Source: a virus (taxonomy: Duplodnaviria > Caudoviricetes). Taken from it: DNA of 30,264 bases. The translations under genes and the position numbers were made by a program. Positions 2,010-27,851 of this stretch are shown one piece after another; position 1 is the stretch's first letter, and each line of letters begins with the position of its first letter. Below the pieces are notes generated by a model, which did not search any database, was not told the origin of the DNA, and saw only the letters and a program-made list of their open reading frames with translations. The stretch lies in the IMG/VR virus record IMGVR_UViG_3300037479_000622, positions 1 to 30,264 of that record; one strand, 5' to 3'.

Positions 2010-2828
2010 ATGTCCACGACGATTCCGACCGACAAGTTCCAGTCTCGCGACGAGCTGGTGACGTTCATCGAGGAGCAGGCCGCGACGGCGGTCGAGAAGG
2101 CGGCGCGCGTCGAGCGGCGCGTGCCGTGGGCCACGGCCGGCCCGGTGTGTCAGGACTCGGCCGGTTACTCCGTGCTGAAGGCGGCCGCCTTCGCGCTGGG
2201 TTACGTCGGGCCGGACCAGGCGAAGGAGGAGATTCACGCGCACCAACAGTTGCGCGACCTGTACGCCGGGTACGGGTTCATGCCGCACCACGGGCAGCAG
2301 TCGTTTCTGGTACCGCTGGCCAGCGCCCACCTGCCGGCGTTCGAGCCGCACGGCCGGCGGCTGCGCGACGAGCTGCACCAGAAGATGACCGCGCACGCCG
2401 ACAAGTTCGACCCGGACGAGGCCGACTGGATCGGCCGCCGGCTCAACCCCCGGGCCAAGGCGCTCGGCACGCTCGTCGATACCGCGGGCGGGACGATGGT
2501 GCCGCTGCCGGTCCTGGGCGAACTCATCGACCTGCAGCGGAGCATGGAGGTGTTCGCCTCGGCCGGGGCGCGCGAGGTGGCGCTGCCGCCGAACGGCCGC
2601 ATCCAGTTCCCGAAGCTCACGGCCGCCTCGACCGCGTACTGGGTCGGGGAGGGCAGCCCGATCACCGAGAGCCAGCCGACGACCGGCAACCTCGACCTGC
2701 AGGCCAAGAAGCTCGGCGTGCTGGTGAAGCTGAATTGGCAGGATGATTACTTACGAACTCGACGCGCTCTAGGATGCAGTCCCGATACTTCGCCTTTTGA
2801 ACGGCGCGGTAGTGCAGCACCACCTTAG
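2010..2828 (+). pseudogene. Major capsid protein (HK97 fold), 5' part, interrupted by the prophage at codon 240
   Basis: TAGGTMVP..LGELIDL, FPKLT..STAYWVGEG.PITESQPT.GNLDLQAKKLGVLVK; after 2728 the frame runs into prophage DNA and stops at 2828. Confidence 0.92.
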
Positions 2829-4671
2829 ACAGCAGGGACCGCAGCAGTTCAGCTTTCCGCAGCTTGTTCGATCCCTTCAAGGCGTCTTCCGTCTGCTGAA
2901 GCTGCTTGCGGTAGCCGTGAAGCTTGGCACGCAGTTCCGCTAACTGGTCTTCGAGAGGCACGCACAGACCTTCCCACCGGGCTAGATCGGCTTCGATCCG
3001 TGCAAGCTGGTTGTCGGCGGTATGCAGTTCCCTTTCTGTCCGCGCCCTGCCTTTGGCGAGTAGCCATCCCTCGAACTCCTCTTGCAGCTTTTCCACCTTG
3101 GCGCGGGCAGCCTTCACCTTCTGCTCTTCGTACATGACGAACCAGCGCCGCACCATGTCCACCCCTAGCGGAGTGCCAGCGCCGATCTTCGCCAGTTCAG
3201 CAGCAAGGCGCTTGTCCCGAATGTCACCCTTGACCGTAACCAGCTTCCGGCAGAGTGCCATACCCGCAGCGTCATCGGCAGTGGTGAAGACCTCTTCAAG
3301 ATGAGCGATGTAAGCCCGGATGCCCCGCGAAATGGCTTGGTCTAAGTCAATGCTGCCTAGCGTGCAATCAATCTCGCGGATACGCAGCAGGGCAGAGTCT
3401 TCGGGGCGGTTGTTGATATCCTCTCGCATCTTGCCGACGTGTTCCAAAACCAGGGCTTCCGCCTTTTCATGGCTGATGTAGTTGCGAGTGCAGCCCGTAT
3501 CGTTCTGCGGAGAGCGATCCTGCGAGAAGCGGTAGTAAGACGCACAGATATAGCCCGCCTTGCCGCGAGCGCTGAAGCAGTGCATAGCCCGACCGCACTT
3601 CCCACAGAACAGCAGACCACGCAAGTAGGTATCTTCCCGCCGCAGTGGGGACGGACGTTCCTTCTTTGTCTTTAGCTTCTCTTGCACCAGGGCGAAGACT
3701 TCCGGGTTGATGATGCCTTCATGCACGTTCGGGGTGAGGATGACGGCTTCGCCCTTGTTGGTACGCTGCTTCCTGTCCGGGTTGGTGGTGGGAGAAATCG
3801 CTTTGCCGTTGAAGTGGGCGAACTCCCCTTGTGACGTGCGGTTGTAGCGGATGCTGCCGATGTAGACCGGGTTTGACAGGATGTATTCAACCGTAGTCCG
3901 TGACCATCCCTTGCCGTATCGGTGTTTGCCCTGTTGGTTCAGCTTGATAGCGATACCGCGCGGGCTGATGGCTTGCGTTCGGTACATCTCGAAAATCTGC
4001 TTAACCGTGGCAATCCTTTCCTTAGCCAGTGACAGGACGTAGCGGATAGTATCGGTCCTGTTCTTGCGCGGGGGCTGTTCCCTCTCGACGCGCGACCCGT
4101 CCGGCATCACTACCAGTATCTTCCCGTTGTCCTGATAGTGGACGCGCCAGAGCAGTTCTCCGCTTTCAGTCCGGTATTCCTTGTCGTAGCCGTATGGCGG
4201 AATCTTGCTCTGAGGCTGCCCGCGCTTCGCCCTGTCCACCATCTCCCGTAGGACGTTGGTTCCTAGCTTCTCTTGAAACTCCCTGCTGCCTTCCGCCTTG
4301 ACCAGCGTAGTAACGCCAGTGGCGATATCGGGGCTTGTCAGTTCCGCGCCCGTCGTGACCTCGACTATCCGGCTTCCATGCTCGCGGAAGAGGTAGCAGA
4401 TATGGAACCACTCGAAATGATCCTTCGTGCCGATGCGGTCTTGATGCCAGCAGTAAACCGTTCCGATCTTGCCTTGCTGGACAAGCCGTAGCATGCTCTG
4501 GAAGTCTTCGCGGGTCTTGCTGTGGTGTCTGCTGCCGGTGTCCGTGAACCAGTGGGACGCAGGCGGGAAGGGCAGCCGTCTGTCTGCGAGGTAGTCCCGA
4601 ACTCCCTTTTTCTGGCTTTCCTCTTCCTGCGGGTCACTGCTCTTGCGGATGTAGACGGCATCTTGACGCAT
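2662..4671 (-). CDS. Large serine recombinase (integrase); 3' end crosses attL
   Basis: 669 aa from ATG 4671 with RBS AAGGGGG; resolvase catalytic AVYIRKSS, QDRIG, recombinase domain PPYGY..ILSNPVYIG..HEGII, Zn ribbon LRGLLFCGKCG..YIC, coiled coil. Confidence 0.96.
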   Translation of the reverse strand: MRQDAVYIRKSSDPQEEESQKKGVRDYLADRRLPFPPASHWFTDTGSRHHSKTREDFQSMLRLVQQGKIGTVYCWHQDRIGTKDHFEWFHICYLFREHGSRIVEVTTGAELTSPDIATGVTTLVKAEGSREFQEKLGTNVLREMVDRAKRGQPQSKIPPYGYDKEYRTESGELLWRVHYQDNGKILVVMPDGSRVEREQPPRKNRTDTIRYVLSLAKERIATVKQIFEMYRTQAISPRGIAIKLNQQGKHRYGKGWSRTTVEYILSNPVYIGSIRYNRTSQGEFAHFNGKAISPTTNPDRKQRTNKGEAVILTPNVHEGIINPEVFALVQEKLKTKKERPSPLRREDTYLRGLLFCGKCGRAMHCFSARGKAGYICASYYRFSQDRSPQNDTGCTRNYISHEKAEALVLEHVGKMREDINNRPEDSALLRIREIDCTLGSIDLDQAISRGIRAYIAHLEEVFTTADDAAGMALCRKLVTVKGDIRDKRLAAELAKIGAGTPLGVDMVRRWFVMYEEQKVKAARAKVEKLQEEFEGWLLAKGRARTERELHTADNQLARIEADLARWEGLCVPLEDQLAELRAKLHGYRKQLQQTEDALKGSNKLRKAELLRSLLSKVVLHYRAVQKAKYRDCILERVEFVSNHPANSASPARRASWPAGRGCRSSAGSR
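2711..2752. other. attL: host half gctcggcgtgctggtg + AA (2727-2728) + attP arm gctgaattggcaggatgattactt (2729-2752)
   Basis: Arm 2729-2752 matches the reverse complement of 27171-27194 at 19/24 positions; symmetry centres on the AA dinucleotide, as typical for serine integrase sites. Confidence 0.9.
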
Positions 4672-4744
4672 GGCTATTCCCCCTTGCTTTGCTGTGCTGT
4701 ACGGACCACTTGCTAGCATAGCAACAGCAAAGCAAACAGCAAGC

Positions 4745-4778
4745 AAAAACCCCGCGCCCGGCTGCCCGGTTCGCGGGG
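4745..4778 (-). terminator. Rho-independent terminator upstream of the integrase
   Basis: Minus strand CCCCGCG..CGCGGGG stem followed by TTTTT, after the 61-aa gene. Confidence 0.7.
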
Positions 4779-4824
4779 CTGCTCTCTTGGGTATCGTGAC
4801 TCTCTCGCCATTTCCCCCTAGTTC

Positions 4825-5010
4825 TCATCCGGGGGCTTTTACCTCGACTACCCGCGCCCTGGTCGGACGCAGTTCCTTGACGACCTCGACAGGAACGCCG
4901 ATCCGCCGCAGCATCAGGACTGCCAACCTCTCGGCAAGGCACTTCCCACAGAGGAACGACAGACCGGAGTTAGCGGGCTGTCCGCAGACCCGGCACGCAT
5001 AGGTTTTCAT
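4825..5010 (-). CDS. Small Zn-finger-like hypothetical protein
   Basis: 61 aa, CRVC..CGKC; ATGA overlap with the upstream gene; RBS AAAGGTGG. Confidence 0.65.
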   Translation of the reverse strand: MKTYACRVCGQPANSGLSFLCGKCLAERLAVLMLRRIGVPVEVVKELRPTRARVVEVKAPG

Positions 5011-5399
5011 GCAGCACCACCTTTCCGAAGCCGACTTGCCCCGTCAACCTGAACCGGGATCGGCGGCACGTCCGGCAGCGCCTCGAAATCGTGTTGGTCA
5101 AAGTCGAACATCAGTTCCGCAGGTTCGGTGCGACCCCTCATCTTGCACAGCACGACAGCCCGGACGTTCACCCCGCCATTGTGGGCGAAGTTCCAGTCAT
5201 GCTTGATCCCGGCACGATTCCAGAACTGTAGGTCAGGCGAGTGATACCAGCTTGTCACGCTGATATGGAAGCCGTCCGGGTCTAAATCCCTGTCGAACCG
5301 CGAGTCAGGGACGTGAGAGAAGTTGAGCGCCCGCGACCGCTTCAGCAGCCTGCGAAGATCGTCGGTAGTGAGCAGCTTTTCGAGTCCTGTTGCTTGCAT
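5007..5399 (-). CDS. Hypothetical protein
   Basis: 130 aa; RBS AGGGGAAAAGCC-ATG resembles the integrase RBS; translationally coupled to the next gene. Confidence 0.65.
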   Translation of the reverse strand: MQATGLEKLLTTDDLRRLLKRSRALNFSHVPDSRFDRDLDPDGFHISVTSWYHSPDLQFWNRAGIKHDWNFAHNGGVNVRAVVLCKMRGRTEPAELMFDFDQHDFEALPDVPPIPVQVDGASRLRKGGAA

Positions 5400-6480
5400 G
5401 GCTTTTCCCCTGGTTTGGCGATTGGTTCCCTACCCATATGGGACACTGCGGAAGGTTCGCGTACCGCGCTGCCCCTCACTTCTATTCAAAGCATCGCTTT
5501 TCCCAAACTAAACCAGATTCCGAAAAAACTTGCTCAATATAAGCGCCTTACAAGACCTAGTAGCGAAAAGCCCCTAGCTTCGCTTCTACGGGCTTCAAAC
5601 GAGAAAGGGCAGGACAGTAGGCAGGAAGGGAGAACGTGCCTCTTATGCGATCCTAGAGCCTCAGAAGGGCATTGCTACAGTTACAGTGCTATTGCTATTG
5701 CTATTGCTACAGAAGTGGAAAAAGGCACCAATAGCTTGCGCTGCGCTTAGTAACTTTAGCTGTAAACAAATACCGGGTTTTCCCTATATCAGAAAAACTA
5801 CTAACAATAGCGTTAGCAATAGCTCTGAACAAGGGAAAACCCGTTGTATTGGCTTCTCTGTTTTGGCAGCGCTCTGAGTCAGAGGAACACACCCTTATAG
5901 CAATGAAGCTACCGTCTATGGGTTCAGGACGTTTTACCGGCTTTCTTTTGGATGATCTTTCTGGCTGCGTTTATAAGCCACGCAGCAGGCATGGACCCGG
6001 ACGTTAAACCCCAACCCATGAAAACAACAGCTTTGGTACTTTGTGCTGTTGCTGCTTGCATCAACTAGCAAGCCCGTTGCCGGGTAACAACTTCCCCAAT
6101 GTCGCAGGGAAGAGAAAGCCTTACGCAAAGGATGCTCACCAGGGACCGTATTCCGTTTCCCTGACGCTATCAAGGCGAACGCGGTACGTTGTTGCGTAGT
6201 CGCGCCAGTTATCAGTTGTGGGCTTCCCTTGTTATCGGTATGCCCTCACAGTTGCGACGTGTGACCGTCTCGCAGTTGATGATATAGTAGTCTGCTTCCT
6301 CGCATTTCTCAACTCGGCTTGCGAAATACTTTTTTTGGACGTAAATTGCTTACGCTGTCGAATGTGGGCAGCGGTCTTTGGCGGGTAGTGTAACCAACCC
6401 TGACACTACCCGCCTTCTGCATTTCTCGACTTGCTTTTTACTACCAAAATCGGCGATACTGTGCGGACCACTTAGGAGAA
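5400..6480. other. Long AT-richer non-coding region with many inverted repeats and GCTATT repeats (control region, origin or ncRNA candidate)
   Basis: No convincing ORF; inverted repeats 5774-5785/5832-5843, 5688-5706/5805-5823, 5964-5970/5980-5986, 6054-6059/6068-6073, 6091-6096/6107-6112, 6380-6391/6403-6414. Confidence 0.55.
6380..6414. terminator. Perfect 12-bp stem-loop, terminator-like
   Basis: ggcgggtagtgt-N11-acactacccgcc followed by ttctgcattt. Confidence 0.5.
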
Positions 6481-6486
6481 GCAGCA

Positions 6487-6723
6487 ATGTTAGTCACTTG
6501 TGCCGACCACAAGAAAGCGCCCGGAGTAGTTGTCTGCGTTCACTGCTTTGACCACCAAGCAAAGCTAATGTACCCGGTCAGTAGCGGACCCCCTCAAGAG
6601 GAACCCGATTGGCTTTGCGAGGAATGCGTAAAGCAGTTTCCCGACGTTCCGCTAGACCTGCTGAAAATGGTTTGTATGCACTGCGCCAGAGAACTACCCG
6701 GCAAGAGATGGCGACCTAGTTGA
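6487..6723 (+). CDS. Small Cys-rich (putative Zn-binding) hypothetical protein
   Basis: 78 aa, CADH, CVHC, CEEC, CMHC; RBS AGGAG. Confidence 0.7.
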   Translation: MLVTCADHKKAPGVVVCVHCFDHQAKLMYPVSSGPPQEEPDWLCEECVKQFPDVPLDLLKMVCMHCARELPGKRWRPS

Positions 6724-6751
6724 AAAACAAAGGCTGCTGCATTCATAGGGC

Positions 6752-7153
6752 ATGGAGAATGAACAGCAGCAGCCAAGCCCGTTCGATCTACAACGCTGGC
6801 TGCAAGAAACCACTTGGCAGCGCATCACCGAGACTGAAGAATACCGACTGACCACCGAGCTACTAGCCAGCATCGACCAAGCCTTTCCCTGGTTCTGCGA
6901 GCGACCGAAATACGCCTCTCTGCTTGACCAGCTATCCCGCAACAGCGCCTCAATCCGCCTCAACTTCTGCGAGGCACTAGGTAAGGCACGCGGGCACGTC
7001 CTTAGCTCTCTGCTCATCGCAAGAGGCGAGTGCATGGAATGCTTGGCTACGGTCACGATCCTACCCGAACGCTTTCGCAGCCAGTGGACACCACTTCTGT
7101 TGAAGATACTGGAAGCCCTCGACAAGAGAATCAGCAGGCTGCCGACGAAATGA
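6752..7153 (+). CDS. Four-helix-bundle protein (23S rRNA IVP / Avd-like family)
   Basis: 133 aa; DQLSRNSASIRLNFCEALG..SLLIARGECMEC fits the family pattern DQ.RRA..SI..N.AEG...L.IARGS..E. Confidence 0.75.
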   Translation: MENEQQQPSPFDLQRWLQETTWQRITETEEYRLTTELLASIDQAFPWFCERPKYASLLDQLSRNSASIRLNFCEALGKARGHVLSSLLIARGECMECLATVTILPERFRSQWTPLLLKILEALDKRISRLPTK

Positions 7154-7175
7154 GACGCAGCAGCATAGATAGGGC

Positions 7176-7547
7176 ATGGCAAACGAGATTAGCTACAACC
7201 TGCAAGTCAGCATCAGTAACGGCACTTACAAAGACAGCTTCACCAAGCTAGGCGCTTTCATCACGCAGAACGCACAAGGCGCAGCCGGGGGAATCCAGAC
7301 CGTAGGCACCACCGAAGAAAACCTTGTCATCACCGACAGCGTTACAACCAACGGCTGCATCGTGCTTCACAACCTCGACAGCACCAATTTCGTTGACTAT
7401 GGGCTTGACGACGCGGGCACCATGAAAGCAATTGGGCGCATCAAACCCGGCGAAGCACACTGGCTGCGTTTGAAGCCAAGCACCAACCTACGCATGAAAG
7501 CCGACACCGCAGCCGTCCGGGTTGAGTACCTTCTACTCAATGACTGA
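7176..7547 (+). CDS. Beta-rich hypothetical protein, probable virion component
   Basis: 123 aa, Thr/Gly/Asn-rich, MA start, preceded by the late-promoter-like motif CATAGATA. Confidence 0.7.
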   Translation: MANEISYNLQVSISNGTYKDSFTKLGAFITQNAQGAAGGIQTVGTTEENLVITDSVTTNGCIVLHNLDSTNFVDYGLDDAGTMKAIGRIKPGEAHWLRLKPSTNLRMKADTAAVRVEYLLLND

Positions 7548-7550
7548 AAC

Positions 7551-7579
7551 TTGCTTTTGTATGGTTGCTGCATTATCCT
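7551..7579 (+). promoter_or_regulatory. Sigma70-like promoter upstream of the HNH endonuclease gene
   Basis: TTGCTT-N17-TATCCT; the same ACTTGCTTTT occurs at 6429-6438 upstream of the 6487 gene. Confidence 0.4.
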
Positions 7580-7603
7580 CTTTCGATCCGAAAGGGGGCA
7601 GCT

Positions 7604-8164
7604 ATGGGACCACGAACAGAAAACATCAAAGGCAAGCGATATGGCAAGCTGGTAGTCAGGGAGTTTGTCGAAGTGCGGGGCGGTATGGCATGGTGGCTTT
7701 GCGATTGCGATTGCGGCAAAACCACAGTAGCACCAACCGGGCGGCTGAACATCGGGCTTACGGCAAGCTGCGGTTGTGGCATGGGCTATAAGACTCACGG
7801 ACTATCCAAGCTGCTTGCCTACAAAAGCTGGAATCAGATGATGCAGCGCTGTTACAACGAGAAGCATATCAGCTACAAGAACTACGGGGCGAGAGGCATC
7901 AAGGTATGCGAGCGCTGGCACGACTTCCCAAGCTTTCTCGCAGACATGGGCGACAGACAGCCGGGTTGGAGCATAGAGAGGCGAGATATCAGCAAGGACT
8001 ATCAGCCTGACAACTGCACTTGGCTGGAAAACTCCAAGCAAGCCCGCAACAAGCGTAATACCATCTTCGTTGCACCAGGGAAGACACTTCAAGACCACTG
8101 CAAAGAGACAGGCGAGAAATACCACACCGCCTACATGCGACGGAAAAGGTTGCTGAACGACTAA
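7604..8164 (+). CDS. Free-standing HNH homing-endonuclease-like protein
   Basis: GKRYGKLVV..WLCDCDCGK..SCGC..SWNQMMQRCYN..YKNYGARGIKVCERW..FLADMG..SIERRD..Y.PDNCTW; start set to ATG 7604 after RBS AAAGGGGG. Confidence 0.88.
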   Translation: MGPRTENIKGKRYGKLVVREFVEVRGGMAWWLCDCDCGKTTVAPTGRLNIGLTASCGCGMGYKTHGLSKLLAYKSWNQMMQRCYNEKHISYKNYGARGIKVCERWHDFPSFLADMGDRQPGWSIERRDISKDYQPDNCTWLENSKQARNKRNTIFVAPGKTLQDHCKETGEKYHTAYMRRKRLLND

Positions 8165-8206
8165 AAGCGATCTACAACAATGCGTCTAAGTTACGGCTGA
8201 TGCTTA

Positions 8207-8536
8207 CTACCAATTGTCTGCTTCTCGGTAGTGGGCATCCGCCTTTCTCTTTAGCTCTTCGTAGCGCTTGTCATCTCGACACATCGAACGCAGCATGTTG
8301 AAGCAGAGGCTAGTCAAGTAGCCAAAGATGTTTCGTGTTACTTTGATGTTGTGGTATTTCGTCAGGATCAAGACAACGAATTGCTGCCCCGCCTCTTCAG
8401 CATCAACAACAAACCGATACTTCCCCACGATCCCCCTAGCCATCTCTAGCAGCACCAGGGCGAACGCCTCTGGCATCACCCCTGTTCGCTTCAGTTCTGT
8501 TACCCATGCCCGTAATTGCTGCTTCGATGCATACAT
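8207..8536 (-). CDS. T4 gp55-like minimal (region-2 only) phage late sigma factor
   Basis: 109 aa; YASKQQL..K..G.M....L.MARGI..KYRF..D.EE..YHNI..RNIFGYLTSLCFN resembles the gp55-family pattern as I recall it; matching -10-only motifs lie before late genes. Confidence 0.7.
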   Translation of the reverse strand: MYASKQQLRAWVTELKRTGVMPEAFALVLLEMARGIVGKYRFVVDAEEAGQQFVVLILTKYHNIKVTRNIFGYLTSLCFNMLRSMCRDDKRYEELKRKADAHYREADNW

Positions 8537-8537
8537 A
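8530..8537 (+). promoter_or_regulatory. Putative late promoter CATACATA
   Basis: Same or related octamers at 6740, 7164, 11998, 13807, 15700, 17091, 18190 and 19701, each just upstream of a + strand gene. Confidence 0.65.
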
Positions 8538-8564
8538 CCGTATCAAAGCAGCAGACGGGGGAAA

Positions 8565-9308
8565 ATGATCGAACAGGCAATCAAAGACAGACTGAGCGCG
8601 GTAGCGGGATTGGCAGCCCTGGTGCAAAGCCGAATCTTCCCGACCACGCCACCAGAGAACGCACAGCTACCAATGGTCATTTACCGCGTTTCTCAGAGCG
8701 AACCAGTACGGCACCTAACCGGGGCATCCTCACTCAGCAGGCACGTTGTAGAAGCGGATTGTTGGGCGATCAACGCGGACACTGCCTTACAGGTAGCAAC
8801 CCAAGTACGGGCGGCACTGCACAGCTACCGAGGCGGCAGCATTCAAGGCAGTTTCCTGCAAACGCAGTTGACCGAGGAAGAGGAACTAGGCTACCACGCG
8901 CTTCTGACGTTTGACGTTTGGGCAGACAACACAGCTTCCGCCCTCGCAGGCACAGTAGCAGGACAGGACTATACCTTTGGCAACCTGACTGCGAACAACG
9001 CCACTGTCAACAACCAGATAACCGCCCCTACTGTCCGTGTTGGTGTAGCTGGCGATGCAAACCTAGTAGTGCGGGGTTCCCCTGGTCCCTTGCTCACTGT
9101 GCAGGCAGAGGCAGGCGACGGTATGGCGTTGGAAGTCAAAGACTCAGGGGGACCAGAGCGGACGTTTGCCGTAATGAGTACGGGGGAACTGCGGACCAAC
9201 CAGACCGACCCGGCAACCACACTAGGCAGCGTTACCAAGCGCCTGCCCATCTACAACCCTGACGGTACACTGCTTGGCTACATTCCCGTTTACAACACTA
9301 TTACATGA
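8565..9308 (+). CDS. Tail terminator/completion protein (DUF3168-like) with C-terminal beta-rich extension
   Basis: 247 aa from ATG 8565; IEQAIKDRL..LAALVQSRIFP..P.....LPMVIY.VS..P..HLTG....VEADCWA......VATQVRAAL; about 125 extra C-terminal residues. Confidence 0.8.
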   Translation: MIEQAIKDRLSAVAGLAALVQSRIFPTTPPENAQLPMVIYRVSQSEPVRHLTGASSLSRHVVEADCWAINADTALQVATQVRAALHSYRGGSIQGSFLQTQLTEEEELGYHALLTFDVWADNTASALAGTVAGQDYTFGNLTANNATVNNQITAPTVRVGVAGDANLVVRGSPGPLLTVQAEAGDGMALEVKDSGGPERTFAVMSTGELRTNQTDPATTLGSVTKRLPIYNPDGTLLGYIPVYNTIT

Positions 9309-9309
9309 T

Positions 9310-9555
9310 ATGGGCAAGAAGTACGAACAGGTTAGGCAGAAGCAGATAGAAGAGACGGCAAGGAAGGCAGTGGCGTACATCATGGACTACTGTAGGCACT
9401 GGCATTCCTCGACAGGACAGCAGCAACAGGATTACTTTGCATGGATGGGTTATGTGCATGACGTAGCGTTCCTGCTGATGCGAACTGACAACTACGAAGA
9501 GCAAATCAAGGAAGTGGTGAGCGGTTGGAGCGGAGAGAAGCGCCCCGGCAGCTAA
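9310..9555 (+). CDS. Hypothetical protein
   Basis: 81 aa from ATG 9310, directly after the previous stop codon. Confidence 0.55.
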   Translation: MGKKYEQVRQKQIEETARKAVAYIMDYCRHWHSSTGQQQQDYFAWMGYVHDVAFLLMRTDNYEEQIKEVVSGWSGEKRPGS

Positions 9556-9638
9556 CTTTTTTTGGCTACTGTCCTGACCCAACCCGCCCGCAGCATTTCG
9601 CAAACTGCAAGGTTTTGAAACTCCAGAAAGGGAGACGG

Positions 9639-9800
9639 ATGTATAAGATTGGCGACGTTGTGAGAGCTAAGGTAGGCGGACCACCGATGACTATTGACCG
9701 CATCGAAGGGCAGGAAGCGCATTGCGTTTGGTTTGACAAGCGAAAGTTGAAGCGCGGCGTATTCCCATTGGTCGCACTGGTTTTGACAGAGGCGGACTAA
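9639..9800 (+). CDS. YodC/DUF2158 family small protein
   Basis: MYKIGDVVRAKVGGPPMTI..AHCVWFD..F...AL; RBS AGGGAG; stop overlaps the terS start. Confidence 0.85.
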   Translation: MYKIGDVVRAKVGGPPMTIDRIEGQEAHCVWFDKRKLKRGVFPLVALVLTEAD

Positions 9801-13846: not shown

Positions 13847-13849
13847 GAT

Positions 13850-17889: not shown

Positions 17890-17915
17890 AGACTGACTCC
17901 GATTTACATTTCTGC

Positions 17916-18185: not shown

Positions 18186-18205
18186 CAGCCCTACATAGCT
18201 TTACT

Positions 18206-19669: not shown

Positions 19670-19748
19670 ATGAGCAAGACCGAAAAGCTATTGCTACTGA
19701 CATACATACTGCGAGTTGCTAGGGTTCCGTATGTCTTGACGGAGGATC

Positions 19749-20636
19749 ATGAGTGTAATCTATGTAAGCGAGCGGAAGAGAGAGGGACGCAGAGACGAAA
19801 AGGGGATTCGGTACTACACGCGGACATTTCAGGTAGTGACCGACAACCCGCAGGACGGACCCCTTGTAGCGAGTAGCGGGGTTGGGATTCTGCTGTATTC
19901 GTCCTACATCACGCCGAATGAATCAGACCTCTTCGCAATCTGTAAGAACATCGAATGCCACCTAGAGCCGGATCAGTTGACGGTATGGGAATGCGTTTAC
20001 AGCTACGATTCCGCGCCGTTCGATCAGAAGGGCGGCGGACCACAAGGGCAAGGCAACCCGCAGCAGGGCAACAACCAACAGAACCCTACGGCACGTCCCT
20101 GGCAACTTGAGTTCGGCAGCAACAAAACAACCAAGCTACTGACTAAAGACCTCAACAACAAAGAGGTAGTCGCCAGCAACGGGCAGCCGTTTGACCCCCC
20201 GCTAGAAGTACCGGCAGCCTTCCCGACCATCACGATTACAGCTTACAAGGCGTTCGCTGTCTTCGCGGAAGTGCCGTTCTACACCAACGCCATCAACTCG
20301 GATGCATGGCAAGGCTTCGCGCCGAAAACGCTGCGATGCACGGATTACAAGCTACAGACGCAGTACGAAAACGGCGCTTACTTCTGGCAGAAGACCGTTG
20401 TTCTTGAAGTCCACCCGGACAGCACTTGGAACCCGGTCAAGATTCTGGACGCGGGCACATTCGAGAAAGTCAGCGAGAACCCGGATAAGCCGGTTCAGCC
20501 CATCGAAATCAACGGGCAGCCTGTTACCTCTCCGGTCCCTCTGAACGGCGCGGGCAAGCGGCTAGCTGCTGGCGCACAGCTTGTCTACCTCGACTTCCAA
20601 GCATACCGCGAAGTGCCGTTTGCCAACATCATCTAA
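19749..20636 (+). CDS. Putative tail-tip / distal tail protein
   Basis: 295 aa beta-rich, immediately after the tape measure gene; RBS GGAGGA; CATACATA at 19701. Confidence 0.7.
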   Translation: MSVIYVSERKREGRRDEKGIRYYTRTFQVVTDNPQDGPLVASSGVGILLYSSYITPNESDLFAICKNIECHLEPDQLTVWECVYSYDSAPFDQKGGGPQGQGNPQQGNNQQNPTARPWQLEFGSNKTTKLLTKDLNNKEVVASNGQPFDPPLEVPAAFPTITITAYKAFAVFAEVPFYTNAINSDAWQGFAPKTLRCTDYKLQTQYENGAYFWQKTVVLEVHPDSTWNPVKILDAGTFEKVSENPDKPVQPIEINGQPVTSPVPLNGAGKRLAAGAQLVYLDFQAYREVPFANII

Positions 20637-20645
20637 GGGGGGCAA

Positions 20646-21446
20646 GTGGCAGAGCAGTATTTCGTCTTAACGCAGGACACCAAGACCGAGGTAGAGCGGC
20701 TAGTTGATACCAAGCCGGGCATGACCTACGGGCACGGCAAGGGCGCGGGCAATCGTCCGGTATCGACCGTCAAGGTAACGGGCTGCTTCAACCTGACCTA
20801 TCAGGCATACCCCGGCATCATCCAGATTTGGGACGACTTTAGCGGGCAGTGGAAAGACCAAGACGCCTGTTGGATCAGCGATGTAAACAACGCCACGCTG
20901 TCAATTGACAAGCGTTACCACGCGATCAACTACGGGCGGCTTGAAGCGGACGTAGACAAGAAACCGCACCTAAAGACGGATAGCTGCTGCGTCGGTTCCG
21001 CCTCTTGCTCTTCCTCGCAGTCAAGCAGCCAGAGCAGTTCTCAGAGCAGCAGCCAACCGTCTAGCTCGCAGCCGTCATCCTCGCAGCCGTCAAGCAGCAA
21101 CCCGTCTAGCAGCACCAGCAATCCGAGCGCGTCTAGCTCATCCTCGCAGAGCGGATCAAGCAGCAGCAGCCAGTCAGGATCAAGCAGCAGTAGCCATAGC
21201 GGATCAAGTAGCAGCCAGAGCGGAAGCAGCAGCCAGTCAGGTAGCGACAGCGGAAGCAGCAGCAATCCGAGCGGTTCAAGTAGCTCTTCCGGCTGCACGG
21301 ATCAAATCTGCGTTGTGACCGATGTTGCCTGCGTCAACGGGCAGCTTGTGGTTACTAAGAAGTGTTACAGCATCGTCAACGGTCAATTCTGCGAAGTGCA
21401 GCAGAGCAGTAGCGGCGGAGGCGGCGGACCACCACCACCACCGTAA
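20646..21446 (+). CDS. Putative virion protein with long Ser-rich linker and Cys-rich domains
   Basis: 266 aa, GTG start with G-rich RBS; about 95-residue S/Q/G/P tract; CC..C and C..C..C..C..C flanks; ends GGGGGPPPPP. Confidence 0.75.
   Translation: MAEQYFVLTQDTKTEVERLVDTKPGMTYGHGKGAGNRPVSTVKVTGCFNLTYQAYPGIIQIWDDFSGQWKDQDACWISDVNNATLSIDKRYHAINYGRLEADVDKKPHLKTDSCCVGSASCSSSQSSSQSSSQSSSQPSSSQPSSSQPSSSNPSSSTSNPSASSSSSQSGSSSSSQSGSSSSSHSGSSSSQSGSSSQSGSDSGSSSNPSGSSSSSGCTDQICVVTDVACVNGQLVVTKKCYSIVNGQFCEVQQSSSGGGGGPPPPP
21001..21292 (+). repeat. Low-complexity Ser-coding repeats (SSSQ/SSSQP/SGSSS units)
   Basis: Repeated agcagc / tcctcgcag / ggatcaagcagcag units. Confidence 0.85.
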
Positions 21447-21455
21447 AGGGGAAGC

Positions 21456-21833
21456 ATGGCTATAACTTCATCGTCACTAGACGGCGGAAGCGATAGCAGT
21501 AGCTCTAGCGGTTCCTGCCAATGCTGTTGCTGTCCGTCTTCCGAATCGCTCTCCGGTCCCTCAAGCAGCGCTGTTGAAGCCACGATGGTTGAAGGCACCG
21601 GCGGCAGCGAAGAGATTCCGTCTACGTTCTATCTCAGCTTCGGCGACACTACCTTAGCAATGGCAAGCCCGCGCCCTGGTGTGTGGCAGAGCAGAGACAA
21701 CCGCTACACTTTCCACCGGAACGGGCTGCTTGACATTGCCACTATCGGCAAGGCTACCCCCTCGCAGTGGTCTACCGCGCCGTTTGAAGTGGTCTACCAG
21801 ACGCCATCAGGAGAAATCACGCTAACGCTATGA
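21456..21833 (+). CDS. Ser/Cys-rich hypothetical virion-region protein
   Basis: 125 aa; SSSSSGSCQCCCCPSS; RBS AAGGGG; ATGA overlap with the next gene. Confidence 0.7.
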   Translation: MAITSSSLDGGSDSSSSSGSCQCCCCPSSESLSGPSSSAVEATMVEGTGGSEEIPSTFYLSFGDTTLAMASPRPGVWQSRDNRYTFHRNGLLDIATIGKATPSQWSTAPFEVVYQTPSGEITLTL

Positions 21834-22093
21834 TTGAATGCGATTGCCAACAGCCCGGCTTCTGCCCTCACTACCAACGCCAGTTCACCCGGCGACAGTG
21901 GGAGATTGCGCGGGGCATCAGGATCAGTGAAGGCGAACGAAAGCTATACCTCGACAAGTGGGAGCAAGAGCTAGTCGAGAAGGGAGGTAGCCCGGACCAG
22001 GGCGGCACCTTTCACGCCAGCCCACCAACCGAAAACGGCTGCCACTGCAACCGGGGACCACGCGCCGAAGACGGACGCAGACGAGTACGCTGA
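21830..22093 (+). CDS. Small Cys-containing hypothetical protein (possibly N-terminal part of the glycosyltransferase gene)
   Basis: 87 aa; ECDC..GFCP..GCHC; stop lies where the GT frame acquires its conserved N-terminus. Confidence 0.6.
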   Translation: MIECDCQQPGFCPHYQRQFTRRQWEIARGIRISEGERKLYLDKWEQELVEKGGSPDQGGTFHASPPTENGCHCNRGPRAEDGRRRVR

Positions 22094-22094
22094 A

Positions 22095-23753
22095 AAGCTG
22101 ATTCTGCACAACAGCCAGTGTCCCGGCGATCATCTCGGCATTACGGCTGCCCTCGAATGCCTGCACCGCCTCTACCCTGGTGAGTACCTGACAGACGTTC
22201 GGACCAATCACCCGGACTGCTACGCCAACAACCCGCGCGTTACGCCGATCCCCGATGACCAGGGCAGGCGTATCGACATGCACTGTCCGCTAATCAACCG
22301 CAGCAATCAACAGCCAGTGCATTTCATGGACGCATGGACGCAGCACCTTGCCAACCAGCTTGGCAGACCTCTGCAACTGGTGGTAAACCGCCCCTACGTC
22401 TACCTGACCGAGCATGAACAGCGCTTCCGCCCGGCTGCCGCACCGCCAACCGGCAAGTACGCCGTGATTAACGCGAGCTACAAAAGCTGCTACCCTCTGA
22501 AGCATCCAGGGCACAAGCTGTATCAAGCCATCGTTGACCACTTCCGCGACCGGATTACCTTTGTGCAGACGGGGGACGCCAAAGAGCATTACCGCGAGCT
22601 ACAGGGACCGAACGTAATCAACGCCATCGGGAAGACCAGCGTTCGGGACTACATCCGGCTTTGCTATCACGCGGAATTCGGCATCGGACCAGTAACAAGC
22701 ACACTGCATATCTTCGCAGCGTTTCAGAAGCCGTATTTTTGCTTCAACACCAGGGAACCTAACTCTTGGCTGTTCTATCCCTCAGTGCAGTTCATTACCT
22801 CGAATGGCTTGCTGCCTTGCAACCGCTACGGCGCGTGCTGGCACAACAAAGCCGATCCTGCTTCCCCCGACCGCAACATTTGCGAGCGACCACACTTTAT
22901 AGATGGGGAATGGATACCGGAATGCGCCAAGATCATCAACCCGGCAAGCGTCTGCGAGCGCATCGAAGCTATGTACAACTCAGGGATGTTGACCTATGAA
23001 CCAAGAGCTATGACCGAGACACCGAAAAGCATCATTCCCGACAACCCGACCGTAGGCATTGCGATTGCAACTCACGCCTGCGTTCCTTATGTCCATATGC
23101 AGCTAGAGGCACGGAAGCGGTTCTATCCCGACGTTCCCGCCCTGGTAGTCGATGACTGCTCACCAGACTTCCGCGAGCTAGCCAACCTCTGCAAGCAGTA
23201 CGGCGCAGACTTCATCAGCAACCCTCAGAGGCTAGGGCACGTCAAGGGGGACATTGCCAGTTACCGCCACGCTATCCAGTGGGCAGCAGCCAAAGGGCTT
23301 GACCTAGTGGTGAAGGTTTCCCGCCGATGGATCATCATGAAGCCGTGGGTTGAAGACTTCAAGCGCCTTGCGATCCTGACGCAGTACCCGACCTACAGCA
23401 ACCGTTGCGATCATTACGGCTTCGGCTTTCGCAGTGAGTGTATCGGGCTTCATGTTGATAGCTGGTTGCAGACAGTCCCGACGATGTTGGAAGCGATCCA
23501 GGGACCAGACCCCGGACTAGCAGAGGCGTTCTACGATCAGCGTTGCAGCCAAGCTATTCCCCTCTGCGAGATGGCAAAAGACTATCAAGCCGAGCATCCG
23601 GGTTGGGCGACTTGGGATTTGTTGGGCACCAACCGGCATGCGGTCCCACCGTGGATACTCTGGCACAACGCGCTAACGCCAGAGGTTTATCATATGAAGG
23701 CGAAAGAATGGGGATTGCCTTACAGCGTTGAAGCGTTCCGGCAAGTACCGTGA
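22095..23753 (+). CDS. Two-domain glycosyltransferase (GT9/GT-B-like plus GT2/GT-A-like); true start unresolved
   Basis: Frame open from 21975; KLILHNSQCPGDHLGITAALECLHRLYPG..DVRT..NNPRV lies upstream of the annotated ATG 22278; IGKTSVRDYIRL.YHAEFGIGPVTSTLHIFAAF.KP; second domain VGIAIATH..ALVVDDCSP. Confidence 0.8.
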   Translation, partial: KLILHNSQCPGDHLGITAALECLHRLYPGEYLTDVRTNHPDCYANNPRVTPIPDDQGRRIDMHCPLINRSNQQPVHFMDAWTQHLANQLGRPLQLVVNRPYVYLTEHEQRFRPAAAPPTGKYAVINASYKSCYPLKHPGHKLYQAIVDHFRDRITFVQTGDAKEHYRELQGPNVINAIGKTSVRDYIRLCYHAEFGIGPVTSTLHIFAAFQKPYFCFNTREPNSWLFYPSVQFITSNGLLPCNRYGACWHNKADPASPDRNICERPHFIDGEWIPECAKIINPASVCERIEAMYNSGMLTYEPRAMTETPKSIIPDNPTVGIAIATHACVPYVHMQLEARKRFYPDVPALVVDDCSPDFRELANLCKQYGADFISNPQRLGHVKGDIASYRHAIQWAAAKGLDLVVKVSRRWIIMKPWVEDFKRLAILTQYPTYSNRCDHYGFGFRSECIGLHVDSWLQTVPTMLEAIQGPDPGLAEAFYDQRCSQAIPLCEMAKDYQAEHPGWATWDLLGTNRHAVPPWILWHNALTPEVYHMKAKEWGLPYSVEAFRQVP

Positions 23754-23785
23754 AAGGAAGCCTGCCGGGTAGTTGAAGAAGGAGA

Positions 23786-24100
23786 ATGCCGAAAACCACC
23801 TACCCGGCAGGCAGGAGAAACGAGCCACACTTATCTAGTAACCGAGGGGGGAAATTGAGAGAGAATCTTGAAAAGGCACGGCAACTGAAGCAGCAGCTAA
23901 AGCAATCCTTCAACCTCTACACCAAGACCGAGGTAGCAGAGGCAGCAGGCGTCTACCCTTGCCAGTTGAACTACTGGATTCACCGAGGCGTCATCCCTGC
24001 CCCGACCGTCTACTATCACAAGCTGTACCCCTTCTACACCGAAGAGCAGCGTAGCGCCATTGTCGAGATACTAGCCAACGTCATCAAGCGGCGGAAGTGA
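23786..24100 (+). CDS. MerR/excisionase-like HTH DNA-binding protein
   Basis: LYTKTEVAEAAGVYPCQLNYWIHRGVIPAP..YTEEQ...I; RBS AAGGAG. Confidence 0.75.
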   Translation: MPKTTYPAGRRNEPHLSSNRGGKLRENLEKARQLKQQLKQSFNLYTKTEVAEAAGVYPCQLNYWIHRGVIPAPTVYYHKLYPFYTEEQRSAIVEILANVIKRRK

Positions 24101-24102
24101 AG

Positions 24103-25113
24103 CTATTCGCAGGCTTCTGCTTCATCCTCGACACGGACGCCGAAGAGCCGACCGAAGTTGTAGCGCCATTGCAGGGCGAAACTCATCCCGATTAAGCCAT
24201 CAAGGGGGCTAGCTAGCAGGCGCGACCATTCGTTGTCGTTTGGCACCCGACCTAGTTCCTTTTGAACCTCGACTACCCAATTATCAGCAGCGTCAATGAC
24301 CCCAAGCTGAAGCGGAGCGATCTTCAGAATTGCCCGGAGCGCGTCGATATCTGAATCCGGCAGCAGGGTTTTGTCTTTCCTCAGCTTCTCTGCATTCTTC
24401 GTTTTGAAGTCGGCTTCCGCTTCAGCAATGATTGCCTTTATCTGTGTATCGTCTTGAAGGTTGTCGATCAGCTTCACCAGCTTCTTAGCGCGCCAATCAC
24501 TTTGGTTGACGAAAGCAAGGAACCGCAGAACCTTCTTTGCCCATGATTCGTTCTGCGAGAGCAGCCAATCACGCTGTTTCTTTGCTAGGCGGCATAACCC
24601 TTCGTCAGCAATCTGCGTCTTCGTCAGGTATCGCCACTTGGTTATCTGAAGACGAAGCGGGGGCTTTTTCTTCGCCTCTTGGTAGTCAGTGAGCAGGACT
24701 AGCGCATCATGTTCGCTGCCTAGCAGTCTCTCGTATGCTGAGAAAAACGGTTCGCTAGTGCAGTAGTTCTCTGAAGGCGACTTGCAGCCCATATCCAAAT
24801 CAGGCAAATCAACACCACGCGCCGGGTTGATCTTCAGGGGCGGGATTCCGAGGCTTGCGAAAGTGTCGGTTTCCAGAACGGCAACAAGGATCATCTCGAC
24901 TACGCTGCCGATAGTCTTGCCGTCCAGATTTGGCAGTGTAGCGTCTGACTTCAGCTTTTCGTACCAGTGCGGCAGGTTGCCCCCGCGACCGAGGCGCTTC
25001 AACACCGCTTCAAGGTTCGCTAGGTTCTCCCCACGGAGCGCAGCATTGACCTTCCCGATTAGGGGATCAAGATTGCTACGCACAATCTGCCGAAGTTCTT
25101 CTTTAGTAGGCAT
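24103..25113 (-). CDS. Putative Type II restriction endonuclease (PD-(D/E)XK)
   Basis: 336 aa from ATG 25113; G..VE...RGVDLPDLDMGCKSP catalytic-like motif; overlaps the end of the C5-MTase gene. Confidence 0.7.
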   Translation of the reverse strand: MPTKEELRQIVRSNLDPLIGKVNAALRGENLANLEAVLKRLGRGGNLPHWYEKLKSDATLPNLDGKTIGSVVEMILVAVLETDTFASLGIPPLKINPARGVDLPDLDMGCKSPSENYCTSEPFFSAYERLLGSEHDALVLLTDYQEAKKKPPLRLQITKWRYLTKTQIADEGLCRLAKKQRDWLLSQNESWAKKVLRFLAFVNQSDWRAKKLVKLIDNLQDDTQIKAIIAEAEADFKTKNAEKLRKDKTLLPDSDIDALRAILKIAPLQLGVIDAADNWVVEVQKELGRVPNDNEWSRLLASPLDGLIGMSFALQWRYNFGRLFGVRVEDEAEACE

Positions 25114-26263
25114 CGTCAAACAGCGTTGCGGGTTCTTTGCGGCGCGGCAAAGCACTTACCGGAATGCCTTCATCTACTAACCGCCCCATTACCCATTCGA
25201 CCAGGGGCGGGGGAACTGCGTTGCCGTACAGCGGGTATTGGTCATAGACGGACACGACGCGGCAATGATCGTCAGGAAAGCCCTGAATGCGGGCATACTC
25301 AACATTCGTCAAGCGGCGGTAGCGATCCCCAACCTTGTAGCGTTCATAGTGCCTGCTAGTAGTGGAAGTCAGGGTAGGAGCTACGCCGTTGATGCCGAAA
25401 ATGGTGTAGCCCATCCTTGCCCCGCCGCGCTGGTTGCTCAGAATCTCTACGCCGTTCACGAAGCGGTTGACCGGGCTATTGTCATGGACCCACTTCAAGG
25501 TTGCCTCTGTGAAGTCGAATTCATCGGGTACGGACGATTCTAGCACGGATGCCAGTGTCACCAGCGGGCAAGCCGCGCTGAACCTGTCCAAGTCTGCCCC
25601 GAAGAAGCGCCCTGCTGAAGCCAAACCCCAATCGGGAAACCTCGCCTTGTGGTCAGGAATCTGGTTCCAGCGGAGAGGATCGGATAGCCGGTCGCATTGC
25701 CGTCCGGTTAGGCAGCCGAAATCGTCCGGCGAAGCCAGCCTGATTCGAGTGCCGTTGGCTTGTTGCTTTGCTGACTGCCTGACACCGACGATAACCACGC
25801 GCTCGCGGTTTTGCGGCAACCCGAAATGCATCGCGTTCAGCAACCGCCATTCAAGCGAGTAGTCAAGTTCCGCCAGCGCACCGAGGATCGTAGCGAAGTG
25901 GCAGCCGTCTTCCATCGTCAGCAGCCGCTTGACGTTTTCGAGAACGAAGTAGCGGGGGCACTGTTCCTTCAGTACGTCTACGATCAACTGAAACAGCGTG
26001 CCTCTTGCGTCTCGCGTGCCTTCTTTCTTCCCCGCGCTGCTGAAGGGCTGACAAGGGAAACCGCCGGTCAAAACGTCGTGGCTTGGTACTTGTCCTTTGA
26101 GGGGTGCGAAGTCGCCTTCCTGATGCACCCCTACGCCGAACCGATCCCGGTAGACGGCTGACGCCTTCGGGCACAGATCGTTTGCCCAAACCGTTTCCCA
26201 ACCGAGGCGGTCAGCCGCAATGCGGAAACCACCGATGCCAGCGAACAGTTCAACAGTCTTCAT
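25103..26263 (-). CDS. DNA cytosine-C5 methyltransferase
   Basis: Motif I ELFAGIGG, IV GGFPCQPFS.AG, VI LENV, VIII PQNRERV, IX RRLT..E.ARIQGFPD, X GNAV; start could also be 26320 or 26350. Confidence 0.96.
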   Translation of the reverse strand: MKTVELFAGIGGFRIAADRLGWETVWANDLCPKASAVYRDRFGVGVHQEGDFAPLKGQVPSHDVLTGGFPCQPFSSAGKKEGTRDARGTLFQLIVDVLKEQCPRYFVLENVKRLLTMEDGCHFATILGALAELDYSLEWRLLNAMHFGLPQNRERVVIVGVRQSAKQQANGTRIRLASPDDFGCLTGRQCDRLSDPLRWNQIPDHKARFPDWGLASAGRFFGADLDRFSAACPLVTLASVLESSVPDEFDFTEATLKWVHDNSPVNRFVNGVEILSNQRGGARMGYTIFGINGVAPTLTSTTSRHYERYKVGDRYRRLTNVEYARIQGFPDDHCRVVSVYDQYPLYGNAVPPPLVEWVMGRLVDEGIPVSALPRRKEPATLFDDAY

Positions 26264-26488
26264 GCGGGTAGCACAGTGTCCGGCTTGTGGTGAACCCTCG
26301 ACCCGTATTCGCTTCTTCATCGGCTGTTGCCCTGGTCCGGCTTGTGCCATTTTACGGACGCGCCGCGCCTCTGGCTGCTGCCGAGAGGACTGTACCAAAC
26401 CGCCCGCCCATTTTGCTAGCGCGGATGCTGTCCCTTTGGTATACTTCCCTGGTCCGTACCTTCACCAAGCCAAGACCAGGGGAACAGC

Positions 26489-26848
26489 ATGGCAAAGAAA
26501 CCCGAACGGGGCGAAAAGGCGCGGTGGATTCGGGAAGCGCTGGTAGCGAATCCCGACTTGGGACCGACCGAGCTAGCCGAGATGCTCAACAAGAAAGCGG
26601 CGGATGCGGAAGTCAAGCTTACCTTCAAGCCGGTAGAGATCAGCGCCGCGAAGAGCCGAGAGGCAAAGAAGCAGCAGGACGGCGGGGGCGGGGGCAGGAA
26701 GGGACGGACCAGGGCGGCAGCAGGATCGGCGGCAGCCTCGACAGCAGCAACAGCAGCCGGGGCGGGGGAAGCAGTGGTCAAGCTGATGGAAGCCGCAAAA
26801 GCACTCGGCAAGGAAGAGGCAAAGAAGATTCTTGACCTGATGGGCTGA
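26489..26848 (+). CDS. Small basic Lys/Ala-rich putative DNA-binding protein
   Basis: 119 aa; KARWIREAL.ANP.LGPTELAEML HTH-like segment, G/A linker, C-terminal helices; RBS AGGGG. Confidence 0.75.
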   Translation: MAKKPERGEKARWIREALVANPDLGPTELAEMLNKKAADAEVKLTFKPVEISAAKSREAKKQQDGGGGGRKGRTRAAAGSAAASTAATAAGAGEAVVKLMEAAKALGKEEAKKILDLMG

Positions 26849-26860
26849 ACAGGGGGAACC

Positions 26861-27076
26861 ATGCCCGGAAAAACCCGCTACCTGTCCCGAATGCCAAAGA
26901 CCGTACCAGAGGGGCGAATCGTCGTTCACAGCATCGTGAAGCCCACCCATCCCGAACAAGCGCCGGGGGTAAACGGCTTCCGTTGCTGGACGCAGCAGCC
27001 GGACGATACCGTAACCATCTGCCGTTGCGGATGGGCACCGCACCTACCGCAGCACTACAAGCCGAAACCGCAGTAA
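26861..27076 (+). CDS. Small hypothetical protein
   Basis: 71 aa; RBS AGGGGG; H, C.CGW and H residues; followed by a hairpin. Confidence 0.65.
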   Translation: MPGKTRYLSRMPKTVPEGRIVVHSIVKPTHPEQAPGVNGFRCWTQQPDDTVTICRCGWAPHLPQHYKPKPQ

Positions 27077-27082
27077 ACGAAG

Positions 27083-27118
27083 ACCCCCGGCAGCGCTATC
27101 AAGCCGTCTGCCGGGGGT
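27083..27118. terminator. Probable bidirectional terminator
   Basis: acccccggcag / ctgccgggggt 11-bp stem between the + strand 71-aa gene stop and the attP-form integrase stop (27127-27129, minus strand). Confidence 0.7.
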
Positions 27119-27126
27119 TGTTGCAC

Positions 27127-27194
27127 CTACGCAGACAGCAGATTTGCCAGCATTTCCAGCAGTTCCGGCAAAGTAATCTTCTCGCCAGTTAAGC
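27127..27194 (-). other. Alternative 3' end of the integrase gene (joined only in the excised attP form)
   Basis: After circularisation the integrase frame reads ..NSA-CLTGEKITLPELLEMLANLLSA-TAG. Confidence 0.75.
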
Positions 27195-27212
27195 AAGTTG
27201 AACAACGAACTG
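27171..27212. other. attR: attP arm aagtaatcttctcgccagttaagc (27171-27194) + AA (27195-27196) + host half gttgaacaacgaactg
   Basis: Inverted partner of the attL arm; capsid reading frame resumes at AAG TTG AAC AAC GAA. Confidence 0.9.
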
Positions 27213-27851
27213 CTCCGGTTCACCAGCCCCAGCGCCGAGGGGCTGGTCCGCTACGACATGGCCCGGTCCGCGGCGCTGAAGGCGGATCTGGCGATGCTCG
27301 AAGGGACCGGCGGGACGCAAATCAAGGGGCTGATTACCTACTCGGGAATCACCCTGCACTCGGCGAGTACGCTCGGCGCCAACGGCGACACGTTCCAGCC
27401 GGCCGACGTGGCGCTCATGGACAGCAAGTTGCCGGACGCGGTGGACGCGCCGACCGCGTGGGTGATGCGCAAGGCGATGTTCGCGGCGCTCATGAACCGC
27501 CGGGCGGACGCGGTGTCCGCCAGCGACGGGAAGGGGCCGTTCCTGCTCCGCGGGCCGGAGCAGGGCCCCTCGGCGCTGCCGGCGGAACTGTACGGCACCC
27601 GCGTGGTCCGGTCGGCCCAGGTGTCGAACACGCGGGTGAAGGGCGGGGGTACGAACCTCACCTACATCCTGCTCGGGTACTTCCCGGACTGGGTGGTCGC
27701 CCGCATGGGGGTGATGGAGTTCCTCGCCAGCGGCCACGGCGACACCGCGCTCTCGAACGACCAGACCGTGCTCCGCGGCATCCAGCACATCGACGCCGGC
27801 CCGCGCCAGCCCGCCAGCTTCGTGCTGTGCGACCAGTTGATCGTCGCGTGA
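27195..27851 (+). pseudogene. Major capsid protein, 3' part (resident cluster)
   Basis: KLNNELLRFTSPSAEGLVRYDMA..DLAMLEGTG..IKGL..AWVM..ELYGTRVVRSAQV..QTVLRGI..D.GPRQPASF; in frame with 2010-2726. Confidence 0.92.

Follow-up and report, generated by a model that had tools for sequence, protein, structure and literature searches.

The window analysed here comprises the 30,264 nucleotides of the virus record IMGVR_UViG_3300037479_000622 (Caudoviricetes). Within the window, a prophage of 24,468 bp (2729..27196), with a GC content of 55.7% versus 68.4% and 68.6% in its flanks, precisely splits a resident gene for an HK97-type major capsid protein. Two parts of this gene, both on the + strand, can be distinguished: (i) the 5' part (2010..2729; 240 codons), which corresponds to positions 1-84 of the Pfam family Phage_capsid (PF05065); and (ii) the 3' part (27195..27851; 217 aa), which corresponds to positions 84-277 of that family and is 69-90% identical to 80 loci. 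The capsid frame that starts at 2010 breaks at the AAG of 2727-2729 and is picked up again at the AAG of 27195-27197. In the lysogen, the 5' frame continues into the prophage until a stop at 2828 (272 aa); a scripted rejoin at the common AAG yields a 457-aa frame without a stop, which is 89% identical to its nearest intact orthologue and free of gaps at the joint. The reading is contiguous across the window's site in 75 of 80 orthologous loci. The assignment of the capsid to the HK97 type is based on Pfam and PHROGs; the predicted structure of the intact orthologue was too poor to be used (mean predicted local distance difference test score, pLDDT, 44.7). An earlier note on this stretch had placed the break and the resumption at these same positions, had described an intact fusion of 240 + 217 aa (the Pfam halves do meet at position 84) and had proposed a search for uninterrupted orthologues, and on all of these points its anatomy holds.

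The two attachment junctions have the same components in mirrored order. At the left junction (2703..2752), a host arm is followed by the core AA(G) at 2727-2729 and by an element arm with a conserved motif at +15 to +21; at the right junction (27171..27220), the element arm (27171-27194) comes first, then the core (27195-27197) and then the host arm. The shared core is 3 bp long (AAG). The inner flanks form, as the earlier note had described, an inverted repeat about AA with 19 matches in 24 positions, versus a best value of 17 among 200,000 random 24-mer pairs from the insert; the outer (host) arms show just 6/24 inverted-repeat matches. At the end of the element lies the gene for a large serine integrase of 669 aa (2662..4671, - strand; PF00239, PF07508, PF13408; phrog_95), an open frame with resolvase, recombinase and zinc-ribbon domains, whose translation shows an N-terminal serine motif and four cysteines. 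The 3' end of this gene crosses the left junction and its frame passes into the antisense of the capsid gene. By the chemistry of serine integrases, recombining both junctions at the AA core would restore the capsid gene. Integration by a serine integrase into a virion gene, in a manner restorable in principle, is supported by these data.

A side observation concerns the integrase itself, as integration alters its C-terminus (window 2662-2760 and 27130-27196, compared with loci L114, L116, L016 and L072). After excision, the integrases of the window and of genomes G001 and G002 would end in a short hydrophobic stretch, which in the case of the window would terminate in a small-residue motif. 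Possibly, the altered tail acts as a degradation tag or as a state-dependent control of the integrase.

The split gene stands within a row of resident head-and-packaging genes, all of them on the + strand. It is preceded by the genes for a portal (1..1221; PF04860, E 2e-54), whose orthologues, found in 100 of 267 genomes from the order Gemmatales, show 64-91% identity, and for a prohead protease (1325..1912; PF04586, phrog_80). It is followed by the genes for: (i) a 122-aa phage-type protein of unassigned role (27982..28350; phrog_9522, phrog_5707), present in 33 of 55 long loci and with look-alikes that are mostly viral hypothetical proteins; (ii) a head-tail adaptor (28472..29071; PF05135, phrog_442); and (iii) a large terminase (29173..30264; phrog_38, E 4e-52), with a frame open to the window end and a match in 104 of the 267 genomes. 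In the same genomes, the capsid is matched in 105 (100 close) and the portal in 118 (100 close). The capsid relatives come mostly from Gemmataceae-labelled genomes and the window's copy clusters with Gemmata-labelled ones.

Across the 55 long loci, the neighbours that are kept are a small open reading frame (ORF), the portal, the protease, the capsid, the 122-aa protein and the adaptor, with a methyltransferase and an extracytoplasmic function (ECF) sigma locus in the flanks. No tail or integrase cluster was found among these conserved neighbours, and the terminase lies next to the module in some genomes and elsewhere in others. The median dN/dS of the capsid is 0.29 over 611 pairs; for the window's two capsid halves, values of 0.19-0.39 are obtained versus the eight nearest relatives. 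A quick capsid tree, with no host-marker tree beside it, sorts roughly by genus label. We read the target as a domesticated, chromosomally kept head-and-packaging module under purifying selection, and not as an active phage. Like gene transfer agents (GTAs), this module may package DNA. The earlier claim that the target is a virion gene stands as far as the phage-type capsid is concerned; the "resident phage-like cluster" around it turns out to be a conserved chromosomal module for which no co-inherited tail was found with the three families tested.

Further features of the resident module deserve a mention. Directly upstream of the portal, a conserved ORF of about 100 aa without a family is present in 32 of the 55 long loci (e.g., L042:6676-7008) and is a candidate for a regulator or a small terminase. 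In three genomes, a gene for an ABC-ATPase plus GNAT protein adjoins the resident terminase (L199:4113-5423, L201:3009-4151, L202:12583-13767) and may belong to the module. Within the terminase frame of the window there are palindromic repeats (30070-30264), and orthologue lengths vary near residues 329-356. Genomes G004, G092, G130 and G121 contain 4-8 matches each to the resident terminase, with a single capsid. Finally, the viral contigs L097 and L100-L103 encode capsids that share 46-60% identity with that of the module; some of these contigs have two copies of the 122-aa gene, and they are possible free-living relatives of the module.

The window is not an isolated case: the capsid gene is broken in 13 of the 100 orthologue-bearing genomes, at four sites and by about five integrase lineages. 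Left out of this count are: (i) five genomes with distant matches only (30-44%); (ii) the frameshift-only genomes G020, G143, G161 and G192, together with about a dozen genomes with breaks at contig ends; and (iii) G052, whose contig stops at the second site, and the broken second copy in G252. With these repeated breaks, the capsid gene of the module is an integration hotspot, which is presented here as new.

The first site, i.e. that of the window, is also broken beside homologous serine integrases (36-46% identity) in G001, G002, G168 and G176; whether related integrases use this site was a check that the earlier note had proposed. Right junctions at this site are found in the metagenome loci L146 and L147, and G083 shows the junction motif there, with no integrase before the contig end. 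One 7-bp motif (+15 to +21) is common to 11 of 11 element-side arms. The tail of the P0003 integrase (54% identity) corresponds, once the frame is shifted, to the 3' half of the capsid, with a score of 100 versus 51 elsewhere; P0003 thus apparently uses the window's site in the opposite orientation, and P0005 and P0006 give weak matches to that site. The serine integrases of this first site form one clade (Shimodaira-Hasegawa-like approximate likelihood ratio test, SH-aLRT, 100), which includes three integrases residing in another gene. At the second site, near residue 400, breaks occur in G119, G120, G132, G145, G168, G177 and L147, and related tyrosine integrases adjoin the site in five of them. 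The third site lies a few codons before the first and is used in G003 by a tyrosine integrase and in G237 by a distant serine one. The fourth site, near the 3' end of the capsid gene, is used in G004; the integrase of this 3' site clusters with terminase-gene integrases (SH-aLRT 95, quick tree). Other module genes are broken as well, namely the portal (G084, G149, G178, G243), the protease (G066, L057) and the terminase (G078, G084, G138, G168).

The occupants of the capsid gene vary: there are phages, a 14-kb element with head genes, and islands rich in restriction genes that have no capsid match in the scanned parts. Those of L147 and G237 encode their own head genes. All nine split genes with both halves available rejoin in silico to open frames of 449-459 aa. 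Two elements at once are found in G168 and L147, and the former is decayed, with its integrase, portal and middle capsid piece eroded.

As a side observation on the same integrase family, related serine integrases reside in other conserved Gemmatales genes (L119, L120, L121, L122, L126, L129, L141). The first three (L119-L121) share one common target gene; from their motifs, the targets in the other loci (L122, L126, L129 and L141) look like ychF, a NUDIX gene, an endonuclease gene and comM.

In order to place these frequencies in context, internal breaks were counted in 80 capsid-bearing genomes, the first in the order of their handles. The capsid is broken in 10/80, comM in 15/75, the portal in 1/78, rimO and hflX in 0/77 each, and ychF in at most one genome. 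According to Fisher tests, which ignore relatedness, the capsid break rate gives p values of 0.0015 versus rimO, 0.009 versus the portal and 0.27 versus comM. The comM gene of Gemmatales (L211-L231) is often broken at a CPCG motif near residue 347.

Regarding the rest of the inserted prophage, it encodes its own head, packaging and tail genes. Upstream of the integrase gene there are two small ORFs on the - strand (4825..5399), one of 61 aa with four cysteines and one of 130 aa, without any Pfam or Atlas family; by position only, the 61-aa ORF is a candidate for the directionality factor. A stretch of about 1 kb (window 5400-6480) without a convincing ORF contains hexamer repeats and a 32-nt inverted repeat; the non-coding short repeats and the inverted repeat (5684..5843) are a possible origin or operator. 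Then follow, on the + strand: (i) an HNH endonuclease and a tail terminator (7565..9308; phrog_374, PF11367); (ii) the head module (9800..16628), with the small (terS) and large (terL) terminase subunits separated by an HNH gene, portal, protease, the prophage's own major capsid (13781-15109), another HNH gene (the third within the prophage), adaptor and head closure; (iii) the tail module (16625..22093), with an HK97-gp10-like protein, tail tube, chaperones, a tape measure of 487 aa and distal ORFs without assignment; and (iv) a MerR-like helix-turn-helix protein (23786..24100; phrog_2474), which is a weak match (PF13411, E 0.0016, under the cut-off). Towards the right end, a type II restriction-modification pair is found on the - strand (24103..26398), formed by a C5 methyltransferase (PF00145; PADLOC MTase_II, E 3e-76) and a likely endonuclease (REase_II, E 2e-5); restriction-type genes are likewise present in the capsid-gene occupants of G001 and G177.

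No repressor, replication, lysis or directionality-factor gene was recognised in the prophage by means of Pfam, PHROGs and Atlas, several ORFs being without assignment, and the replication-like proteins of related elements have no counterpart in the window. A relative of the prophage occupies the same site in L147 (terS 61% and terL 65-70% identical). In viral contigs, integrase relatives are distant only (24-34% identity), and the relatives of the prophage terminase sit on short contigs.

As to why mobile elements split this gene, we hold with moderate confidence that they do so because the loss of a GTA-like host particle favours the resident element, in a knock-out similar to that of comM. 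A tailed prophage is integrated at the conserved capsid site via its own large serine integrase. In the lysogen, the capsid would end soon after the start of the HK97 fold, and the genes downstream would be separated by 24.5 kb from the first genes of the operon and, hence, no resident particle would form. As the break falls at position 84 of the 280 in the Pfam model, it is sound to infer that the resident capsid is lost during lysogeny. Near the right junction, neither a promoter nor a terminator was matched. The module, in turn, would package DNA as a GTA-like particle, and elements would gain by disabling it, as proposed for those in competence genes, which would thus avoid being replaced by imported DNA that lacks them. 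On this view, the fact that the split can be restored would follow from the precision of a recombination that benefits the element, and would not reflect a switch run by the host. A broader version of this proposal is more tentative, and we would not expect it to hold in full: Gemmatales may keep a tail-less GTA-like head machine that acts against mobile DNA, either through the spread of chromosomal DNA free of elements or through competition for phage tails, and the knock-out of its capsid gene by phages and islands may have evolved on at least five occasions, in parallel with that of comM.

Several observations weigh against the proposed knock-out. The portal, as necessary for the particle as the capsid, is broken far less often (1/78; p 0.009). 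Sister integrases within and beside the first-site clade occupy unrelated genes, as would be expected from a general preference for genes that are conserved but dispensable. A break rate reflects both targeting and tolerance, and the control genes may cost more to lose. Besides, near-identical element arms in G002/G176 and in G120/G132/G177 reduce the independent events to fewer than 13. No co-inherited tail was found: of three tail or neck families, PF05521 is over the cut-off in 5/25 genomes, PF06199 in 3/25 and PF10145 in 1/5, which leaves the particle without an evident means to deliver DNA, although a diverged tail locus could escape these families. Two public runs contain window DNA, both as contigs only, with no RNA run among those listed. 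No excised form was seen in the contigs of these runs or in viral contigs: neither an empty-site nor a circle junction is present among the 12 loose ends listed (214 further ones exist) of the low-depth contigs of the two runs, and a pattern scan of viral contigs gave 0 circle junctions and 0 further left junctions. The role attributed to the module is a prediction from sequence comparison.

The best-surviving alternative, which we consider unlikely but a serious competitor, is that the capsid gene is a neutral safe harbour, i.e. a single-copy, highly conserved gene, dispensable in the short term, where drifting integrases spread and whose function is irrelevant to the element. In favour of this reading, the capsid query has no match in 162 of the 267 genomes and frameshifted or eroded copies exist; the presence of sister integrases in other conserved genes and the excess of capsid over portal breaks point in the same direction. 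Against it, two other conserved genes, rimO and hflX, have no internal break in the same genomes, and ychF is broken at most once. Moreover, about five integrase lineages with two chemistries (serine and tyrosine) converge on the capsid, four module genes are broken, and the integrase of the capsid 3' site groups with those of the terminase gene in the quick tree (SH-aLRT 95).

Alternatively, the element could time its excision to the moment at which the module is induced, and thereafter either exploit the head thus restored or contribute the missing tail. The same logic has been proposed for helper-embedded phage-inducible chromosomal islands (HE-PICIs; PMC10111431), and tail-less heads that borrow tails exist (10.1101/2025.02.11.637232). 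In line with this reading, the occupants of G001, G177 and G168 show no capsid match in their scanned parts, and the nine split genes rejoin to open frames. However, the prophages of the window, L147 and G237 have head genes of their own, both orientations seem to occur at one site while HE-PICIs are co-oriented, and double occupancy requires two excisions. We therefore judge this exploitation of the resident head to be improbable.

Still less probable, to the point that we give it little credence, is a switch regulated by the host, of the skin or SPbeta type, in which the cell keeps the element and turns on particle production through its controlled excision. In the window, neither capsid half is damaged and both show purifying selection (dN/dS of 0.19-0.39 versus the eight nearest relatives), the integrase is intact, and the lack of a recognised repressor, replication or lysis gene could mean domestication. 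But a recent integration also leaves intact halves, and no such junction is present in 87 of the 100 genomes. The regulatory switch put forward by the earlier note is weakened by the pattern as a whole: 13 of 100 genomes broken, at four sites, by unrelated occupants (phage, small head-encoding element, restriction islands), with two double occupancies (G168 and L147), the first of them with an eroded integrase, portal and middle capsid piece. The disabling of a host capsid system by a phage, also raised there, appears to fit better than such a switch.

Finally, the possibility that an assembler joined the prophage to the capsid halves is scarcely credible, since in each of runs X1 and X2 (from two studies, one run possibly being the window's source) a single contig spans the left junction with zero mismatched letters, the attachment arms are symmetric and the same junction anatomy occurs in independent genomes; the misassembly of which the earlier note had warned is thereby countered on the left side, while the right junction is uncovered by contigs of the two runs with window DNA.

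Coming back to the knock-out of the capsid by its occupants, if the head machine of Gemmatales does act against mobile DNA, the frequency of insertions would be a genomic read-out of domesticated capsids as weapons in the conflict between chromosome and mobile elements. It has long been asked why bacteria retain domesticated phage particles. If the module is broken about as often as comM, the mobile elements themselves would point to its role, and strains with split and intact capsids would offer a natural test. Besides, the window provides a fully mapped pair of serine-integrase sites in a phylum with few genetic tools. It also widens the scope of integration embedded in a late gene, known for satellites within active prophages, to include phages and islands that reside in a module owned by the host.

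When this locus is compared with known systems, SPbeta (with its integrase SprA) in spsM and skin in sigK share with it the serine integrase and the precise, restorable split of a coding frame. Their excision reportedly serves a developmental step of the host, whereas the occupancy of the capsid is sporadic and mixed. The literature searched, most subscription papers and supplements being outside its scope, yielded no article that deals with the module of Gemmatales or with prophages residing in a domesticated capsid gene.

Concerning the module, capsid-forming PICIs (cf-PICIs) are mobile islands that package their own DNA and have head and packaging genes but no tail (10.1101/2025.02.11.637232). 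The resident module likewise has head and packaging genes, with no co-inherited tail by the three families tested, but, unlike cf-PICIs, it has no integrase of its own among the conserved neighbours of the 55 long loci and it keeps chromosomal neighbours. With GTAs, whose head part it resembles, it shares phage-derived head genes on the chromosome, single-copy and conserved, a terminase that is often at a separate locus, and vertical inheritance under purifying selection, as suggested by dN/dS, the rough genus-label tree and synteny. In Rickettsiales, the capsid, portal, connector and terminase genes of GTAs are scattered (PMC9203015). The module differs in that no tail genes were found with the three families tested, and in its phylum (Planctomycetota); the packaging and transfer of DNA by it would be the features that unite it with GTAs.

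Elements in competence genes (comM, comK, comYC) resemble those described here in that one conserved gene is hit at several sites by unrelated integrases; in the same genomes, comM has a break rate (15/75) similar to that of the capsid (10/80). According to PMC10083194, competence genes are enriched among serine-integrase targets, and PMC12378983 and PMC12637031 deal with the chromosomal-curing model. The main text of the first has 0 matches for "capsid", although its supplementary target-gene tables could list it. The difference is that the target here is a virion gene, for which a role in DNA transfer is inferred.

The closest known system is that of HE-PICIs (PMC10111431; Tommasini, Mageeney and Williams 2023). 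These are satellites of 10-20 kb with a tyrosine integrase, AlpA and a primase, which reside inside an inducible lambdoid helper prophage and integrate within the major capsid and other late genes, at many sites and without a replacement sequence; the split gene is unexpressed until excision, and precise excision was shown. In consequence, a split, restorable capsid gene is not new in kind. The element of the window resembles HE-PICIs in being located within a phage late gene without a replacement sequence, but differs from them in four respects: (i) it uses a serine integrase and has no AlpA or primase match; (ii) it is not a helper-dependent satellite, as it measures 24.5 kb and encodes a head and a tail of its own; (iii) its target is a chromosomally kept module with conserved neighbours instead of a helper prophage; and (iv) this module is targeted by both serine and tyrosine integrase lineages.

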